From a virus, in IMG/VR virus record IMGVR_UViG_3300033068_001182, positions 3,607 to 67,606 of that record: DNA of 64,000 bases; one strand, 5' to 3'. The notes under the pieces were generated by a model. It searched no databases. It was not told the DNA's origin and saw only the letters and a list, made by a program, of their open reading frames with translations. A program made the position numbers and the translations under genes. Shown here piece after piece: positions 3,101 through 63,742 of the stretch (within the stretch, counting starts at the first letter, position 1; each line of letters starts with the position of its first letter).

Positions 3101-5452
3101 GATTATCATAAAGATGCTTCTAAAAGATCATATAATTTAGATGTAATTGATTTAGATTTACAAACTGTTACTTCATATCCTACTAGAATATTATATTCTG
3201 AAAAATTATTGGATGAGGAAAGAAGTGATAGTTATAGAGTCTATTTAGCTAATAACTATAAAGATTTACCTAAAAATAAAGGATTTATTACTCATTTGTT
3301 TAATAAAGGTCAAGAGTTATTTGCTATAACAAGAGATAGTATTTGGAAATTATTTGCATCTAATCAAACTATTAAAACAAATTCTATTGATAATATTACT
3401 GTTGGTACTGGAGAATTTTTATCTTTAGATCCTATTGAAGTATTATCTATAGATGGAGGTTATGCTGGTTCATCTTCTAAAATGGGATTGGTTGAAACTC
3501 CTTATGGATATTTTTATTGTGATAGATATAAAGGAAGATTTATATTATTTGATAACCAACAAAAGGATGTTGGTTTAATTGGTGTAAATGAATTCATTAC
3601 AAATAATTATAAATTAGAAATTATAAATCAAATATTAGCATTAGAATCTGAATTTGATGGTCCTTTATCTAATTATGGATATTTAGTTGGTTATGAACCT
3701 ATTACACAAAGAATATTAGTAACCAAATTAGATTATAAATTTACTTCATCAAGTTTTTTACTTTATAAAGGAGTTTATAATCCTGCAACTGTATATACAA
3801 CAGGAGATATTTATTTAAAAGATGGTGTATTTTATAAATTTACTAGTCAAAGTAATTCATATAAAACAATATATGATTCTTCTAATTTAAATGATTTTAT
3901 ACCAAGTACTGTTGAAAATATTAATTATACTTTTACTAATCCTTCTCATGGAGATTTAATTAAAAGTCCAGTAGATCCTACTAAATTAATATATACTGCT
4001 GATGCTGAATATGTAGGAGAAGATTCATTTTCTATTACAGCTAATTGTTTGGTAGAACCTGTTGTTGTAACTGTAGAAAATTCACCATTATTACCAAATG
4101 AAGAAGCTACAATTCCAGAGGATTCTATAAATACAGCAACTGTTATGACTGTTGCAGGTACATATACAGAATCTTTAACTTATTCAATAGTTGGTGGTGA
4201 TGACATATATGGAGTATTTACTATTGATTCTTCAACAGGATTAATAACCGTATTAGATAATAGTACATTAGATTATAACATAAAAAATAAATATTTATTA
4301 GAAGTTAAAGCTTTAGGATCTGATAGTAAATTTATAACCTCACAAAATATAATAAATATAACTCCTGTAGCAAATGTTATTACAGGAGTAGATCAAACAG
4401 TTAGTATATTAGATACAACCGCTTCAGGATCTGTTATTAAAATATTAGATCAAGCAACACAAACAAAAGACTCTGTTATATTATATTCTATTGTAAGTGA
4501 ATCTATAGCAGGAGTATTTGAATATAATTTTGATGATCCTTCTAATTTAGAAGTTAAATTAATTAATAATTCTTCTTTAGACCCTTTAATAACAGATACT
4601 TATACTATTACAATAAGAGCGCAAGATAATAATAATTCTGCAATATATGATGATTTTACTTTAACTATTACTGTAGTATTTTATACAGATCCTGCACCAT
4701 TTACTTTTATAGATTTATCTGGTTTAGAATTAAGTACATTAACAGTATCTGATATTGTAACACTATCTGATTTTACAGGAAATGCACCAATAACAATATC
4801 TAGTGGAGAATATAGAATTGATGGTGGTTCTTGGACAAGTTCAGCTGGAACAATAACAGCAGGACAAACATTACAACTGAGAAATACAACTTCATCATCA
4901 AATGATACAACTATTTCAACAACCGTTACTGTTGGTACTGTAAGTGATACTTGGACTATTCGTACAAAGTCAGCATCTGGTACTGCTTGGAGAGTACAAT
5001 CAGCAAGTAAAACTTGTGGAATAGGTGAAGTTGCTGGATATGTATTTTATACAATACTTGAAGAATATACAGTATCAACAGGTATAAATACAGGTAATAC
5101 AAAAGATAATGATCCAGAAGATCCTGATTATATAGGTCCTGTTTATGATACAGAACAATGTCCTTTATCAGAAATTACTCAGTATATATTAGTTAGTTAT
5201 TCTAGTACTGATAGACCAGAAGCATGTGGAGGAACTATTCCTTTATCAGGAGCACCAATATCTGTTTATTCTTCTATAAGTGACCCGTTAACTAATAAAA
5301 CTTTGTATAATCAACCTGAATTACTTAGTACTTGGACAGCTGTTCCTAATAATGGTGATTATGTTAAGTTCTATGTATTTGGAGTTCCAGGAACTACTTA
5401 TGTGGGTAATGTTGATTCAAGTGGTAATATGACTAGTATTGTAACTTGTTAA
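185..5452 (+). CDS. Muzzle/tail stabilisation protein, N-terminal part, with C-terminal cadherin/Ig-like domains
   Basis: 1755 aa; crAss muzzle-like segments (YSYALNA, IYWVDGLNEDRFLNI, RDEIYSVGI, VRHHKMPS, YPTRILYSE, ETPYGYFYCD); last ~550 aa Thr/Ser-rich beta domains with cadherin-like FTIDSSTGLITV...LDY...Y.LEV.A. Confidence 0.75.
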   Translation: MAQAKSTNQFTKGLNLSSDYVNNQKDTYSYALNAIKEDSLNAPSSISNEKGFSSYLNLGYDYILVGSIYLGKEDYILFIKHTDGAVTQFNKIILYREGIVYTKMDNINLGFDKNYPIRGTYRINYKGEYIIYWVDGLNEDRFLNIDNGISITDLDKLSIDIKYVPAVLQSRTISDNDGSLKTGAYEFFGSYISEDNATTPWFTLSGTPSYIIDDNTQRLSLIDYVAVDGSDSGLITTKSIDLNLINLDPNFNRFRLGIIKTINGTSTGYYINDISYLTSTKTIKYSGFAEEISIGDINQFVVDPVRYYASNAITQSGNRLLRANTKSSIFNIDYQSFANNIVTDYYIEEELVMTMQNSTDYDIRSEWWKSANTKYSDKKSLIRDEIYSVGIAFGLIEEGIETPIYHIPGRALNSVPQSSFVEQYSNNTNPSLSVWDTNPITENGETLPRWKVENTALLSTDGVYKKPAYWESQEVYPDGFNFPITGSTNTGIGATNVRHHKMPSSALEPLYRREEVGNVFSFYKRNIGLKFTNIVIPDELKNNIAYVRFYITPRTTESNKSIIGKGIFSNCSLSKIDLAPGSGGLEGGPFTTNQWIVPVIPYNDLDDPLNSAVYNEAKGTNTWNTTTNHYHSFYSPDTTLKNPVLNIDNVSIENEIDGIVHYYDVMATKVNALPYKDGADGKTSVAQYHIKRDIFYGDENKGRTVELAISNPDFPIYNLKDVFKPTYKSISILNNTDKIVSSKGRRKVKSAVYVPHNSKLSTDQLGGMDNPYYSPYGQGNVLIELDPTYSVLGATTKVDTSINFQDNDSSKNNIGVANKQSGSFHFFPVVNPKAVYRYGSIKRNNPTQYGIITGMEYIPTDLVIANPTFNVNNTLVEEAKGLIGDGFIDLFSVQRTRWANKRGYTYGGRAPEIHVGVSTFFTESNINHRLRYAEGTDTKTYYPKQILTTPIKDWLNNYNDRVLIDNYYKYNNDYHKDASKRSYNLDVIDLDLQTVTSYPTRILYSEKLLDEERSDSYRVYLANNYKDLPKNKGFITHLFNKGQELFAITRDSIWKLFASNQTIKTNSIDNITVGTGEFLSLDPIEVLSIDGGYAGSSSKMGLVETPYGYFYCDRYKGRFILFDNQQKDVGLIGVNEFITNNYKLEIINQILALESEFDGPLSNYGYLVGYEPITQRILVTKLDYKFTSSSFLLYKGVYNPATVYTTGDIYLKDGVFYKFTSQSNSYKTIYDSSNLNDFIPSTVENINYTFTNPSHGDLIKSPVDPTKLIYTADAEYVGEDSFSITANCLVEPVVVTVENSPLLPNEEATIPEDSINTATVMTVAGTYTESLTYSIVGGDDIYGVFTIDSSTGLITVLDNSTLDYNIKNKYLLEVKALGSDSKFITSQNIINITPVANVITGVDQTVSILDTTASGSVIKILDQATQTKDSVILYSIVSESIAGVFEYNFDDPSNLEVKLINNSSLDPLITDTYTITIRAQDNNNSAIYDDFTLTITVVFYTDPAPFTFIDLSGLELSTLTVSDIVTLSDFTGNAPITISSGEYRIDGGSWTSSAGTITAGQTLQLRNTTSSSNDTTISTTVTVGTVSDTWTIRTKSASGTAWRVQSASKTCGIGEVAGYVFYTILEEYTVSTGINTGNTKDNDPEDPDYIGPVYDTEQCPLSEITQYILVSYSSTDRPEACGGTIPLSGAPISVYSSISDPLTNKTLYNQPELLSTWTAVPNNGDYVKFYVFGVPGTTYVGNVDSSGNMTSIVTC

Positions 5453-39256: not shown

Positions 39257-40884
39257 TATTTTAATTTTTCTCTAACTTCATTTAAAGTGGTTAATTTAAT
39301 TAATTTACTATCTTTAAATATTGTTGTTAATAAACCAGATTGCTCTTGTTTCCAAGTACATTGATCTACTACAAAAATATCTTTAGTCATACCAGTTTCA
39401 TTACCAATAATACATAATAAACCTTTCTTAGACTTCTTAGTACCATCATCAGTAATAGGATCTTTGAAGATTTCTCTAGCTTCTACTATATAATCTTTAC
39501 TTCCATCAGCAATATCTCCTTTAGAATTTTTGTGAGTAATCTCACCATAAGTAGCTTTCATAGCAAATCCAAAAGTATCACGAGTGTTATATTGATAAGT
39601 GTAACTTCCTACACCAAATACAATATTAGTACTAGCAAATCCTTTAGCTTTTAATCTTTCACAAATTTGTTCAGCTCTTTCTAAAGTAATAGAATCACCA
39701 TAAATAGCTCCAATATGTGGATCTAATACTTTGTAACCTTGTTCGTTAATAGTACCACCAAAGACATCCCAGAGAAGTTCTATTACACCTTTTTCTTCTG
39801 GTGTTGGCTCAACATTTAATAGCTTCCAATTGTCTACTGTTAAGAATTCTCCATCTAACCTGTAAGAAGTCTTTTTAGGAAGAGTGTTTTCAGGATAAAT
39901 CATATATATTCCATCTATAGATATAGTTTCATGATCAAAAGTTCCTACTCCTCTTTTTAGTATTTCTCTAGCTGTGCCACAAATAATGTCAGCAGGATCA
40001 CCAGAATCAGGACGTATTACTAATTTACCATCTCTACCAAGAATTTCTTCTTTTAATTGTGGTAAATATTCAGTACAAACCTTCCATAAATCCCAAGTAT
40101 CAGATACAACAGATAATATACCATTAGGATATTTATCTAATAATCTTTTAAAAGTTTCTATTTCAGATTCTTTAGTACCCATACACATGACACTATGTTC
40201 AGTTGCTGGTACAGAGGCTCCAATGAGTCCTGTTGCATTATAACTTTTTTCTAACTGATATATACCAGGAATAGTATCAGTGCCTGTAAAGCTTGTTAAA
40301 TGAGCCATACCACTAATAATAGCAGATTCAATACTAGACATTCCTCTCATACTAAAATCATGAGCTTGCCATTGAACTCCTTCTATAGATCCTGTAGTTT
40401 CTAAAGCATATTTATTAAGAAGTTTTTTATATTCATAGGCAATAGTAGCTGAAGTAATACCTTGCCATAAACAAGCACTTAATAAAGTTTCTAAATAGTT
40501 AACTAACCAAGCAAAGTCTGGATGTGTATTTTTAATTGTTAATAAAGGTACACCAATAGGACATAAAGTACCTTCTGGTAAAGCTTTAATTTCAATAGGT
40601 AAATAGCCTAATGCATGTAGTTCTCCTATTCTTTTAACATTAATAGGAATATGTCTAGAATACTCTTCTAATATTTTAGATATTCCTACATTAAAAAATT
40701 CTTCGTTAAAACTTTTAATAAGATATTCTAAAATAAAATGTTGTATTCCCCATACAACTACATGGTTTACTCCTTTAATTCTAGATTTTCTAGGAGTAAA
40801 ATTTGAGTATAATAAACTCATATTATCAGGATACATATCCTGATGATGTGGCTTATAAAAGTCCACATATAACATTGGATTCAT
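39256..40884 (-). CDS. Nicotinamide phosphoribosyltransferase-family protein (NAMPT/Namat-like)
   Basis: DFYK..H, HDFSMRG, SVPATEHS, SVVSDTWD, VIRPDSGDP, YGDSI, TRDTFGFAMK, KKSKKG. Confidence 0.92.
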   Translation of the reverse strand: MNPMLYVDFYKPHHQDMYPDNMSLLYSNFTPRKSRIKGVNHVVVWGIQHFILEYLIKSFNEEFFNVGISKILEEYSRHIPINVKRIGELHALGYLPIEIKALPEGTLCPIGVPLLTIKNTHPDFAWLVNYLETLLSACLWQGITSATIAYEYKKLLNKYALETTGSIEGVQWQAHDFSMRGMSSIESAIISGMAHLTSFTGTDTIPGIYQLEKSYNATGLIGASVPATEHSVMCMGTKESEIETFKRLLDKYPNGILSVVSDTWDLWKVCTEYLPQLKEEILGRDGKLVIRPDSGDPADIICGTAREILKRGVGTFDHETISIDGIYMIYPENTLPKKTSYRLDGEFLTVDNWKLLNVEPTPEEKGVIELLWDVFGGTINEQGYKVLDPHIGAIYGDSITLERAEQICERLKAKGFASTNIVFGVGSYTYQYNTRDTFGFAMKATYGEITHKNSKGDIADGSKDYIVEAREIFKDPITDDGTKKSKKGLLCIIGNETGMTKDIFVVDQCTWKQEQSGLLTTIFKDSKLIKLTTLNEVREKLK

Positions 40885-40895
40885 AATTTTTAATT

Positions 40896-41657
40896 TTAAT
40901 TTCTACCCTTTTGATTAGGATATAACTCTTTTACAGAGTCTGATTGAAAATATTCTTTGGTATCTATATTCATAATGGTTAACTTACCTTTAAACCCAGC
41001 ACCTGTATCTAAATTCCAAATAATAGATGCGTTCATAGGTTCATCAGTATTCCACATATTAGTTGTAGTATGTCCTATATAAATCTCAGAAAATTTTTCT
41101 TTAATTTTAAAAACACTATTGGTATCTTTATGAGATAAAGCTGTTCTCCATAAATCTCTATCCCAATATAGTTGATAAGGATTTTCATTTACTATTTTAT
41201 CTATATAATGATGTCTATTAAATCCTCCATGAACAAAACATCTGTTATATTTATCAATATAGTAAAGTAATTGATTTTTAAAAAAATTTACATGACTTTC
41301 TGGTATATCTTTATAATTAAGTTCAGAATTCCAAACATTATAATTATCTACATATTTTTTATCTAATGCTTTAGCATAAGAAATTAAAGTAGCTTTACCT
41401 CCTTGAGAATAACCAGGATGATTATTACTTTGTCCTAATAGATAATCTAAAAACCAGTCATCATGATTACCTTTAATACTAATAAGATTTTTAATAGTAA
41501 GTAATTTTTCTACACATTTATAAACTTCATCCCAGCCATCAGCAACATCTCCTAACTGAATAAGAACATCATTATTATAATCAAAATTAGATCTTTCTAA
41601 ACACTGTAATAAAGCTTTATAAGCACCATGTATATCTCCCATGACAAATGTTCTCAT
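40896..41657 (-). CDS. Metallophosphoesterase (PPP/ApaH-like)
   Basis: GDIHG, LGDVADG, GNHD, FVHGG, IGHT, LDTG. Confidence 0.88.
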   Translation of the reverse strand: MRTFVMGDIHGAYKALLQCLERSNFDYNNDVLIQLGDVADGWDEVYKCVEKLLTIKNLISIKGNHDDWFLDYLLGQSNNHPGYSQGGKATLISYAKALDKKYVDNYNVWNSELNYKDIPESHVNFFKNQLLYYIDKYNRCFVHGGFNRHHYIDKIVNENPYQLYWDRDLWRTALSHKDTNSVFKIKEKFSEIYIGHTTTNMWNTDEPMNASIIWNLDTGAGFKGKLTIMNIDTKEYFQSDSVKELYPNQKGRN

Positions 41658-42601
41658 ATTACTTCTAATTGTTTAATTTTTGTGTCTTTTACTTTACTAT
41701 TTAAATCAAAATATTTATCAGTAATTTTTCTTACAGAATTAGTAGTATAAATACAATCAAAGTATTTGTTTAATTCTTCAAAACCTGCTGAAAATATACC
41801 ATGAGTTACTATAAGATAAATTTTATTAATATCTGGACTATTTGGATTATCTCTAATTTCTTTAGCAATATTAATAAAGGTTCTACCTCCATCACATATA
41901 TCATCTATAATGATAAAATCTTTACCAGCATAGTTATTATTTAAAGGAACTACAGTTTTAGTAAGATTACCTTCAGTATCCCTAGATTTACTACAAGTAA
42001 TAATATCTCCTGTATAACCTATAAACTTAGCAAGATTTTCTATTTTTTTAGAAGCTCCTGCATCTGGTGATACTAGTATAAAATCTTTAAACTTATCTCT
42101 TATAGATAGATCTTTATAATCTACATTAAAGTAAAAAGTAGATAAAGCTTTCTCAACTAATTTAATATTATTTTCAATTTTTAGATTATTAATACAAGCA
42201 GGTGCTACATCAGAATGTACATCAAGTACAGTTACTGATTCATATTTTTGAGTATTAATAATAGGAGCTATTATATCAACTAAATAACTAGTACCCCCTT
42301 CTTGAAATTGTCTATCAGATCTAGCTCCTAATAAATAAGGAATATACAAATGAACTTCTGAAACTCCTAATCTTTTAAGAGCTTTAGTAGTACACAATAT
42401 TAATTCTAAATCTTTAAATGAATTAAATCTAGATTTAATTAGTACAGAAATTCTTGATTTATTCCAAGATCCTAATCCATAATAAGTATTCTTTATATCT
42501 TCAGTGACGTTAAGTACAATATCTTGTTGACCATCAGGCATATTAGATATTTTGTATTTTATATCAGAATTATCTAAATCTGATAAATTAATTGTCTTCA
42601 T
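41654..42601 (-). CDS. Ribose-phosphate pyrophosphokinase-family protein (PRS/Adps-like)
   Basis: PYLLGARSDR, LDVHS, VSPDAGA, IIDDICDGGRTF, VTHGIFS. Confidence 0.9.
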   Translation of the reverse strand: MKTINLSDLDNSDIKYKISNMPDGQQDIVLNVTEDIKNTYYGLGSWNKSRISVLIKSRFNSFKDLELILCTTKALKRLGVSEVHLYIPYLLGARSDRQFQEGGTSYLVDIIAPIINTQKYESVTVLDVHSDVAPACINNLKIENNIKLVEKALSTFYFNVDYKDLSIRDKFKDFILVSPDAGASKKIENLAKFIGYTGDIITCSKSRDTEGNLTKTVVPLNNNYAGKDFIIIDDICDGGRTFINIAKEIRDNPNSPDINKIYLIVTHGIFSAGFEELNKYFDCIYTTNSVRKITDKYFDLNSKVKDTKIKQLEVI

Positions 42602-62480: not shown

Positions 62481-62741
62481 TTATTTACATGCTATAATCC
62501 TTAATACTTTTTTAAAAGGTATATAAGTTTTAGGAGTCATTTTCTTCCAAGCTGATTTAGCTTTATTAACTTCAATATTACCACCTTTTTTTAATTTTAC
62601 AGTAGCTATTACAGTAGGTGGATCAGCTTTTTTAACTGTTTTAATAGTAGAACCAAATTGAGGATAACTACCTTTTGGATTAAAGTTAGCAATAATAGCA
62701 ACTTTTTTGATATTTTTTAATGAAAATTCTTTTTCTCTCAT
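62481..62741 (-). CDS. Basic hypothetical protein
   Basis: 86-aa ORF. Confidence 0.5.
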   Translation of the reverse strand: MREKEFSLKNIKKVAIIANFNPKGSYPQFGSTIKTVKKADPPTVIATVKLKKGGNIEVNKAKSAWKKMTPKTYIPFKKVLRIIACK

Positions 62742-63082
62742 GGTTGTTTGTTTAAGTTTAAGTGATTTATTAAATGATCATAACCTTCACCTCTAATAGG
62801 TGTAGTTTTCATAAAAGAATATTTTTCATCTTCTCCTATTATTAATACTTCATCAACAGGTGCTGTTTGTATTTTATCTAAATTACTAATTCCGTTAGGT
62901 TCTTTTGATAAATAATCTCGTAACTGTTGATTTAATCCTTTTATAGAATAGTTTAAAATATTATCATTATCCTTTTCTTTCATTATCCAATTCATTCCTG
63001 AAAATGCTGGTAATGTTATAAATGGAATTTGATCTTTGTTCAAATCAGATTCTAAAATTGCTAATGAGGTTAAATAACTCAT
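62738..63082 (-). CDS. Hypothetical protein
   Basis: 114-aa ORF. Confidence 0.5.
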   Translation of the reverse strand: MSYLTSLAILESDLNKDQIPFITLPAFSGMNWIMKEKDNDNILNYSIKGLNQQLRDYLSKEPNGISNLDKIQTAPVDEVLIIGEDEKYSFMKTTPIRGEGYDHLINHLNLNKQP

Positions 63083-63120
63083 AATTTATTTGTTTAAGTG
63101 AATAATTAATTGTTTAATTG

Positions 63121-63209
63121 CTGTACAGGTAGGAGTCGAACCTACACGAGAATATACATTCTCACACATGAGACTAACGTGCGTGTCTGCCAAGTTCCAC
63201 CACTGTACA
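63121..63209 (-). tRNA. Class II tRNA-like RNA with non-canonical anticodon loop (GUC, Asp-like)
   Basis: TGTACAG/CTGTACA acceptor, GTG/CAC D stem, CACGT-TAGTCTC-ATGTG anticodon arm, GAGAAT/ATTCTC variable arm, GTAGG-TTCGACT-CCTAC T arm, G73. Confidence 0.8.
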
Positions 63210-63222
63210 TTGTTTATAAACT

Positions 63223-63380
63223 AACAAGATGTGTTGTTACACCAAAGGTATGTCTGAATCAGGTACAATTATAGTTCATTAGCCTACGTCCCTGACATTA
63301 CTATAGTGTCTAAACGGTCAGTCTAAGAGAGCTATCCCACTCTTTAAATGATGGCTACTTCTAAGCCTACATTTCTTGTT
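63223..63380 (-). ncRNA. Stand-alone mimic of the 23S rRNA uL11-binding domain (H43-H44) with a 96-nt insert
   Basis: AUGUAGGCUUAGAAGUAGCCAUCAUUUAAAGAGU...GUGUAACAACACA closed by AACAAGA/UCUUGUU; matches E. coli 23S ~1051-1108. Confidence 0.8.
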
Positions 63381-63668
63381 TCTAAGTTTATAATGTTTAT
63401 AAAAATATAACATTGGGCTATATTCTTTATCTAGAATAAGAATACTCTCGGAGCTTTACAATCTGCTTATAGCTTAGATAATTCCTCCAATGTTATATTA
63501 ATGTTTTAAAATAAAAATAGATGTGCTTATTCTGTTGATATTACACTAAATTACTTATTCCTTCTATTTTTATTAATAATATCAAATTACTGAAGTGATT
63601 ATAAGTGATCAACTCTCTTCAATCTTGGTTCATATGATATTATTTATACTGGTGATTAAACAGTATTG

Positions 63669-63742
63669 TTGACTCTACAGGATTTGAACCTGTGACCTAC
63701 TGATTATGAGTCAGTTGCTCTAACCAACTGAGCTAAGAGTCA
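63669..63742 (-). tRNA. tRNA with CAT anticodon (probably Ile2/lysidine type; elongator Met possible)
   Basis: TGACTCT/AGAGTCA acceptor, ACTGA-CTCATAA-TCAGT anticodon arm, ACAGG-TTCAAAT-CCTGT T arm, A73. Confidence 0.9.

Follow-up and report, generated by a model that had tools for sequence, protein, structure and literature searches.

A self-closed copy of the ribosomal GTPase-associated centre encoded among phage tRNA genes, and its possible binding of host uL11

Few RNA tertiary structures are as conserved or as well studied as the GTPase-associated centre (GAC) of 23S ribosomal RNA (rRNA), which binds ribosomal protein uL11. The translational GTPases dock there, RelA activation depends on it, and thiopeptides and at least one interbacterial toxin target it. 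RNAs outside the ribosome that imitate rRNA binding sites are familiar from the messenger RNA leaders of ribosomal protein genes, such as the L10_leader of Rfam and the L1-binding leader of the L11 operon. Here, we describe a 158-nucleotide (nt) element at positions 63223–63380 (minus strand) of a 64,000-nt viral sequence, hereafter the window (IMG/VR record IMGVR_UViG_3300033068_001182, positions 3,607 to 67,606), where it lies among the transfer RNA (tRNA) genes of an uncultured phage and its ends refold as a self-closed copy of the 23S GAC. The element rebuilds the top of helix 42 (H42), H43, the junction and H44 (Escherichia coli 1051–1108), with an arbitrary closing stem in place of the rest of the ribosome, and is very probably a member of a family sharing the GAC fold. 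As judged from the comparison of its relatives, this self-closed domain was shown to be under purifying selection for its tertiary fold, within what appear to be tRNA transcription units.

Ribosomal protein leaders follow the same principle, in that an extra-ribosomal RNA copies the rRNA site of a ribosomal protein. They are, however, cis-acting 5' leaders in cells with only a partial resemblance, whereas the element stands free among tRNAs, has no ribosomal protein gene nearby, and reproduces an entire tertiary domain at nearly every base. Other regulators act as protein sponges or decoys, as do 6S RNA and CsrB, and GOLLD and ROOL are large, ornate, phage-linked RNAs found near tRNAs. These resemble the element in being structured RNAs that act in trans through imitation or titration, and GOLLD and ROOL also share its phage and tRNA neighborhood; yet their targets and folds are different, and none copies a ribosomal functional centre. 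The rnaC and rnaD RNAs of phage T4 (species 1 and 2) are likewise small stable RNAs that sit at the end of a phage tRNA cluster, beside tRNA genes, and whose function is not known. They were considered as relatives and rejected: the best match of our covariance model (R1, described below), at 8.8 bits, lies inside segB, and nothing above 5 bits falls on rnaC or rnaD. The tRNA array units of phages, plasmids, integrative and conjugative elements, and some chromosomes (PMC4758250) are the genomic home of the copies found here in phages, Acidithiobacillus (L131), and filamentous cyanobacteria, although the element is a non-tRNA passenger in them, and the main text of PMC4758250 does not contain the term '23S'.

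With the rRNA GAC, and with the 58–60-nt L11- and thiostrepton-binding fragment derived from it, the element shares the helices, junction, and loops, as well as the contacts U1060–A1088, G1071 with G1091–C1100, 1072 with 1092–1099, and 1082–1086 (E. coli numbering throughout). An arbitrary closing stem is a further likeness to the laboratory GAC fragment (PMC1802607), as is A1061 in the window copy, since the U1061A change is reported there to stabilise the GAC fold. In contrast to the rRNA GAC, the element is encoded alone in phage and mobile tRNA arrays rather than inside an rRNA gene, its H44 is broken after 1090 by a domain of 48–341 nt plus a UUUG linker, it has a U1090–A1101 pair, and A1067 is not strictly kept.

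A sequence-only reading of the window had described the minus-strand sequence and layout of the element, and both are borne out to the base, with every residue it named in place; its E. coli 23S 1051–1108 reference agrees with the construct given in PMC1802607, and its view of A1061 as fold-stabilising is upheld by the U1061A result. On the minus strand, a 7-bp closing stem pairs AACAAGA (63380–63374) with UCUUGUU (63229–63223) and replaces the top of H42 (about 1049–1055). The equivalent of A1056 (63373) leads into that of H43 (1057–1081; 63372–63348), which holds U1060, A1061, A1067, G1071, and U1072, followed by the junction UUAAA (1082–1086; 63347–63343, with U1082 at 63347 and A1086 at 63343) and the H44 5' strand GAGU (1087–1090; 63342–63339), whose A1088 partners U1060. 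Between 1090 and 1091 lies a variable insert domain of 92 nt (63338–63247), which contains a basal stem, GGGAU/AUACC with one G.A mismatch, and is joined to G1091 by the UUUG linker (63246–63243); together, insert and linker make up 96 nt without an rRNA counterpart (63338–63243). The H44 hairpin and 3' strand then read GUGUAACAACAC (1091–1102; 63242–63231) with the loop GUAACA, and inclusion of the A1103 equivalent (63230) gives GUGUAACAACACA as the counterpart of 1091–1103 (63242–63230). Among individual residues, A1067 is at 63362, A1095 at 63238, and A1061 at 63368. U1060 (63369) stands with A1088 (63341), G1071 (63358) with G1091 (63242) and C1100 (63233), U1072 (63357) with U1092 (63241) and A1099 (63234), and U1090 (63339) with A1101 (63232).

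Since the 34 nt on the 5' side (63372–63339, corresponding to 1057–1090) are identical at 32 of 34 positions to a true 23S copy (L002), with differences at 1061 and 1072, and several 'phage' database records with the motif are rRNA contamination (L002, L003, and many others), we considered whether the element might lack function, being a scrap picked up from host rRNA, a pseudogene of rRNA, or a chimera introduced during assembly. The 13-nt H44 piece differs from L002 at four positions (1092, 1097, 1099, and 1101), and coordinated changes span the insert. The flanks consist of tRNA genes and AT-rich spacer, with no rRNA. The Rfam large-subunit (LSU) rRNA models had no match in the window or in the whole 67.6-kb virus record (linear, from IMG/VR, and about 75% complete), while as a control they found LSU rRNA in 13 of 14 known genomes. 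Searched with Rfam 15, the window gave two tRNAs at gathering thresholds, and the element had no match even at E up to 10; a 27-nt plus-strand match to a plant-virus pseudoknot, overlapping the element, was set aside as chance (E = 4). As for a chimera with host rRNA, which the sequence-only reading had itself raised as an objection, an 18,700-nt Logan contig from run X1, with an even depth of 74, covers 62700–63723 and crosses the locus with 0 differences. Run X1 is probably the source sample; the contig therefore adds a different assembler but no further sample, which excludes an assembler artefact but not a sample-level one. Hundreds of relatives with compensatory changes and shared signatures foreign to rRNA also speak against a scrap, and we regard this explanation as very improbable indeed.

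The relatives were recovered by several routes. The arrangement recurs in Pseudomonas phage pf16, where BLAST against GenBank phages placed it between tRNA-Asn and tRNA-Pro; the other matches (L002 and L003) were true rRNA contamination. A 5' pattern search of IMG/VR returned 101 stretches, just one of which (L087) continues as rRNA, while the others follow a single order: stem strand, H43, UUAAAGAGU, insert, UUUG linker, H44 hairpin, ACAC, and stem strand. To remove ascertainment bias on the 5' half, searches were also run with a 3' signature, which listed at least 120 stretches in IMG/VR (about 170 estimated) and at least 119 in metagenomes (about 780 estimated). The covariance model R1 was built from 25 short-insert members (alignment A1), with the GAC secondary structure written onto the alignment. 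It matched 79 of 79 sources in the first set, followed by 79 of 80 IMG/VR and 75 of 80 metagenome 3'-signature loci that had flanks. Altogether, viral and metagenome contigs yielded 182 distinct full-length elements; in the first two sets (120 distinct), element length ranges from 119 to 387 nt with a median of 207, and across the family the insert spans 48–341 nt. In the window, R1 scored 112.7 bits (E 1.7e-34, model positions 1–174), the sole match above 8 bits in 64 kb, although the window is one of the 25 seed sequences and its own score is therefore partly by construction; non-seed members score 78–126 bits. The true 23S copies L002, L003, and L087 are also matched by R1, at 59–63 bits and as 74-nt insert-less matches, and R1 therefore describes the GAC. 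Verified copies occur in seven cultured phages: pf16, UNO-G1W1, Milchi, Aeromonas 4_4572, XacN1, GAP32 (L026), and CBB (L168).

Three signatures of the family were absent from the true rRNAs examined, namely A1101, the UUUG linker, and an insert fixed between 1090 and 1091 that starts from a Watson–Crick pair. Position 1101 is A in the family versus U in those rRNAs, and the linker reads UUUG in 59 of 70 copies of the set whose 3' half was unbiased, with UUUA, CCUG, UUCG, UUAG, or UUGG in the other 11. These signatures span element GC contents of 28–61% and cultured hosts with a different type of rRNA H44. Their persistence across both GC content and hosts of the other H44 type argues for a single origin with long maintenance, rather than repeated capture from hosts.

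Support for the fold comes foremost from covariation. In a first alignment of the family, the helices are paired in 94.0% of cells versus 70.6% in shuffles. Both partners vary in 17 of 23 pairs, and a covariation score of 0.570 compares with no more than 0.151 when partners are slid by 1–3 columns. Four invariant pairs in that alignment were fixed by the search pattern and are uninformative there; pairs so fixed do covary in the 3'-anchored set, for example 1064–1074 and 1062–1076 (A–U in each case). AAAG (1084–1087) might alternatively pair with the linker, one strand of this candidate helix being pattern-fixed in either set. Closing-stem pairs hold in 19–25 of 25 sequences, with 3–6 standard pair types each, all nine pairs of helix 1 show changes on both sides, and 1058/1080 covary through four Watson–Crick types. 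These results bear out the proposal in the sequence-only reading of a selected tertiary-fold mimic rather than a captured rRNA scrap, and the covariance-model search that it had suggested did recover covarying relatives in viral and metagenome contigs.

Covariation extends to the tertiary contacts, which carry more weight as evidence for the fold. Among the GAC contacts that PMC2952862 lists for the E. coli ribosome is the one joining positions 1072, 1092, and 1099. Across the 182 copies, the triple 1072/1092/1099 is concordant in 172 (C/C–G in 137 and U/U–A in 35), a value reached by 0 of 10,000 permutations; the exceptions are two C/U–A, two C/C.A, and six alignment gaps. The U type, to which the window copy belongs, is spread over 28 pure and 5 mixed insert-similarity clusters, and the three-position switch therefore happened repeatedly. 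The change from C/C–G to U/U–A is reportedly a natural and tested swap, from work by Conn, Gutell and Draper in 1998. In the first alignment, the 1092–1099 pair itself is C–G in 62 and U–A in 13 copies. At 1082/1086, which we take to be the pair seen in crystal structures, 111 of 125 copies are Watson–Crick (U–A 63, C–G 31, and A–U 17), and again 0 of 10,000 permutations reach 111; the remaining 14 comprise C/A in seven, U/U in five, A/C in one, and one gap. The pair U1060/A1088 is invariant, in 125 of 125 copies where that half was unbiased and in 70 of 70 of the other set, and G1071, with G1091–C1100, is kept in 123 of 124. Collectively, this comparative evidence shows the GAC helices and three tertiary contacts to be under selection.

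Conservation of single bases, counted where the search pattern left them free, further indicates which surfaces of the GAC are retained. Kept positions on this unbiased basis are G1055, U1060, U1066, G1071, A1077, A1084, A1085, and G1087–U1090, the last four being G1087 in 125, A1088 in 125, G1089 in 122, and U1090 in 125 of 125 copies. Below 1054, no base is kept: at positions 1043–1053 no base exceeds 32 of 63, and pairing with their partners is maintained by covariation only. The uL10 site of lower H42 is therefore not copied, and the earlier suggestion of uL10 as a partner is left unsupported. Position 1067 is relaxed (A in 103, G in 17, C in 3, and U in 2 of 125), and copies without A1067 score well and are otherwise intact, as in L197 at 115.8 bits. 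The H44 loop, by comparison, is near-invariant in the set with an unbiased 3' half, with G1093 in 70, U1094 in 69, A1095 in 66, and A1098 in 70 of 70 copies.

These two loops bear on the principal rival function, in which the element would act as a decoy and spare the ribosomes by soaking up something that attacks or reads the GAC, whether an ADP-ribosylating or nuclease effector of defence or competition or a thiopeptide. Phage tRNA arrays offer an analogy for such a role, as one proposed task of these arrays is to make good the tRNAs that host defences destroy. The near-invariance of the H44 loop (A1095 in 66 of 70) would suit it, given that Tre23 ADP-ribosylates 23S rRNA within 1095–1098 of H44 (PMC8661411), as would the travel of the element with tRNA arrays, which PMC12803027 calls a putative anti-defence system. 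Yet 1067 is not A in 22 of 125 copies, which argues against thiopeptides and cleft readers, and against a catalytic toxin the decoy must outcompete tens of thousands of ribosomes. We also know of no anti-phage system that targets the GAC, and on balance consider this role unlikely, though it is the main rival.

The same positions could instead point to a bait that titrates or misdirects a GAC-reading factor, with or without uL11, such as RelA, EF-G, the EF-Tu ternary complex, IF2, or the release factors. These factors dock at the GAC (PMC8661411), and most copies retain the loops with A1067 (103 of 125) and A1095 (66 of 70). Factor binding on the ribosome, however, also needs the sarcin–ricin loop and the uL10/bL12 stalk, neither of which is copied, and the relaxation of A1067 tells against it as well; we hold this explanation to be quite improbable. 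A sarcin–ricin-loop-like stretch in the pf16 insert was dropped as a candidate, as it is not conserved in the related inserts L006, L079, and L071.

The insert raises a different alternative, namely that the GAC module is a sturdy handle for stability, folding, or processing, while the variable insert does the work or the element aids maturation of the neighboring tRNAs. In its favor, inserts are long (48–341 nt), some share sub-motifs such as a GNRA hairpin block, and the elements abut tRNAs. The inserts of the 182 copies nevertheless form 124 similarity clusters with no relation to one another, cyanobacterial tRNA arrays contain copies that lack an insert, the conserved and hence selected part is the GAC module, and a handle has no need for U1060/A1088, both triples, and the H44 loop. 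We therefore give this reading only a slim chance. What the inserts do have in common is the base: of 25 sequences, 25, 25, and 23 retain the first, second, and third basal pair, respectively, and the second is paired in 125 of 125 through four Watson–Crick types. The window insert has no detectable relative.

Two further features of the inserts were observed. In pf16, L006, and L079, the inserts share a GNRA-capped hairpin block (CACCCCG-GNRA-CGGUAAGG; A1 columns about 160–195), found in a looser form in L071 and L077; the tetraloop perhaps docks elsewhere in the RNA. In the window, GAGUGGGAUAGCUCUC at 63327–63342 (minus strand), where the insert begins, can fold into a separate hairpin (AGAGU/GCUCU in the minimum free energy (MFE) fold) that loosely resembles an uninterrupted rRNA H44 and is not common to other family members; it could be an alternative or vestigial H44.

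The genomic context of the element is dominated by tRNA genes. Upstream by 287 nt and on the same strand is a tRNA-Met (CAU) gene (63668–63742, minus strand; Rfam 76.5 bits), separated from the element by an AT-rich spacer (63381–63667, minus strand) with no open reading frame (ORF) of at least 40 amino acids and no Rfam match. Downstream, a 90-nt tRNA-like gene (63120–63209, minus strand) starts 13 nt after the last paired base of the element. ARAGORN calls it Thr(AGU), but its identity is doubtful because the Rfam tRNA score is low (31.7 bits) and 8 nt of the anticodon loop are skipped; its variable arm is long and its anticodon loop irregular. A weak sigma-70-like site at 63433–63404, 24 nt upstream of the element, was discounted, as the scan returned 16 such sites against 16.8 in shuffles. 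Across the family, a same-strand tRNA lies in the retrieved flanks of 66 of 125 elements and an opposite-strand tRNA in 0 of 125, with 43 elements within 20 nt of a tRNA; a second count of tRNA neighbors gave 40 of 60. tRNA-Met is the neighbor at several loci, and in UNO-G1W1 the R1 match is separated by 6 nt from tRNA-Trp before it and by 5 nt from tRNA-Arg after it. No protein gene recurs, as among 370 flanking ORFs the largest cluster has three members, all from near-identical phages. A ribosomal protein leader was also sought: no Rfam leader matched at E up to 10, the tRNA-like gene and small ORFs lie downstream, and the record has no uL11 gene. Nor is uL11 (PF00298) encoded in any of five phage records checked, three of which are complete jumbo phages; any uL11 bound would therefore be that of the host.

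Taking fold, conservation, and context together, we favor the reading that the element encodes a non-coding RNA which tRNA processing sets free and which then engages host uL11 away from the ribosome, to which we assign a probability of about 0.5; that uL11 is the direct partner of the RNA is, in our estimate, an even prospect. An isolated, stem-closed GAC is the classic high-affinity L11 ligand, and this is the first ground for preferring uL11: the 60-nt GAC RNA with an artificial closing stem folds compactly and binds L11 with high affinity (PMC1802607). The second is that the pair read by L11, U1060/A1088, is invariant; it makes important hydrogen bonds to Gly130–Thr131 of L11 (PMC2175356). 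The third is that base 1067, key for thiostrepton and the cleft readers, is relaxed towards G, which is compatible with L11 binding: G1067 accompanies insensitivity to thiostrepton, but RNA with this base can still be bound by E. coli L11 (PMC2175356). The fourth is the lack of a uL11 gene in the five phage records. Under this reading, the RNA would be transcribed with the neighboring tRNAs and freed by tRNA-processing enzymes, with an RNase P cut at the 5' end of the 63120–63209 gene setting its 3' end. The free RNA would then bind host uL11 and so withdraw it or compete for it. Most speculatively, ribosomes short of uL11 might fail to activate RelA, and the phage would thereby blunt the stringent response during infection; we consider this outcome doubtful, and altered factor cycling is a speculative alternative effect.

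Several observations weigh against uL11 binding or limit how far the evidence for it carries. The insert and UUUG linker inside H44 could alter or block the uL11 surface, and neither folding nor uL11 binding would by itself necessarily demand the strong conservation of the H44 loop. Because uL11 matches ribosomes in abundance, a sponge would need tRNA-like expression. The stretch occurs, as contigs, only in run X1, which is DNA-type and probably the source sample, so the 'early' expression proposed by the sequence-only reading finds no support, DNA-type cover being all that was seen for this phage. In the 'RNA?' runs X2 and X7, as in the RNA run X18, cover is limited to H43 words or tRNA-Met, and the H43 words in these runs are true rRNA of other organisms at 90% likeness. 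Thermodynamic folding is unremarkable, with z = -1.44 for the window copy (14 of 200 shuffles fold as well or better), an MFE structure lacking the lower H43 stem and H44, and z = -1.17 for pf16; such scores are as expected for a fold held by tertiary contacts and lend no support. Finally, both samples were drawn with fixed sequence patterns, which makes conservation conditional on the anchored half and the family size a lower bound.

Full-text literature searches, which covered papers outside subscription-only access, found no description of the family, and Rfam 15 gave no match to it, consistent with the initial impression that none had been described; a large family of GAC-mimic RNAs in phages and mobile tRNA arrays thus apparently awaits description. 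More broadly, the element may be a trans-acting GAC decoy, either stripping or withholding uL11 so that no RelA-dependent stringent response follows, or shielding ribosomes from GAC-directed immune effectors of a still-unknown class; we advance this tentatively, as somewhat unlikely. If true in either form, no viral RNA before it would have been known to mimic an active site of the ribosome, and it would mark the GAC as a phage–host battleground, and would reveal an unrecognised route to manipulate host translation or translation surveillance. The hundreds of independent sequences amount to a natural experiment on which GAC contacts are indispensable, and the question is directly testable, as seven cultured phages carry verified copies.

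Beyond viral contigs, a search of bacterial and archaeal assemblies with a pattern excluding ordinary rRNA gave 53 loci, 11 of which are long mimic-type copies. Among them, a complete Acidithiobacillus sp. chromosome carries a 309-nt copy (L131:581-889) in a dense tRNA array of about ten tRNAs in 1.2 kb, which matches the known Acidithiobacillus tRNA array units. A further 10 of the 53, all in filamentous cyanobacteria (L106, L108, L117, L118, L134, L140, L145, L146, L147, and L155), are insert-less GAC-like copies outside rRNA genes, five of them with tRNAs alongside; these have the U-type triple and continue for ~30 nt in a loosely rRNA-like form. The remaining 74-nt matches look like ordinary rRNA of candidate phyla radiation (CPR) bacteria and archaea.

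Certain phages carry two copies, in tandem or ~2 kb apart, as in L223 (236–484 and 489–734, minus strand), L315, L317, and the single contig represented by L341 and L342. In L223, one copy combines the C-type triple with C–G at 1082/1086, and the other the U-type triple with A–U. In the GenBank records of Milchi (L401, 731–862) and UNO-G1W1 (L402, 776–883), tiny antisense 'hypothetical protein' coding sequences are annotated over the element and are probably mis-annotations. The neighborhood in XacN1 (L399, 30–680 and 691–934) is one of RNA repair rather than tRNA, with the R1 match starting 10 nt after an annotated 2'-5' RNA ligase, and in one viral contig (L057:24-347, minus strand) ARAGORN places a transfer-messenger RNA (tmRNA) gene directly downstream of the element. 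Elsewhere in the window, positions 40000–42400 show distant DNA similarity to the phosphoribosyl pyrophosphate (PRPP) synthetase and nicotinamide/nicotinate phosphoribosyltransferase genes of cyanophages and Staphylococcus phages, which suggests a putative nicotinamide adenine dinucleotide (NAD)-salvage module. The best overall relatives are Microcystis and Leptolyngbya phages.

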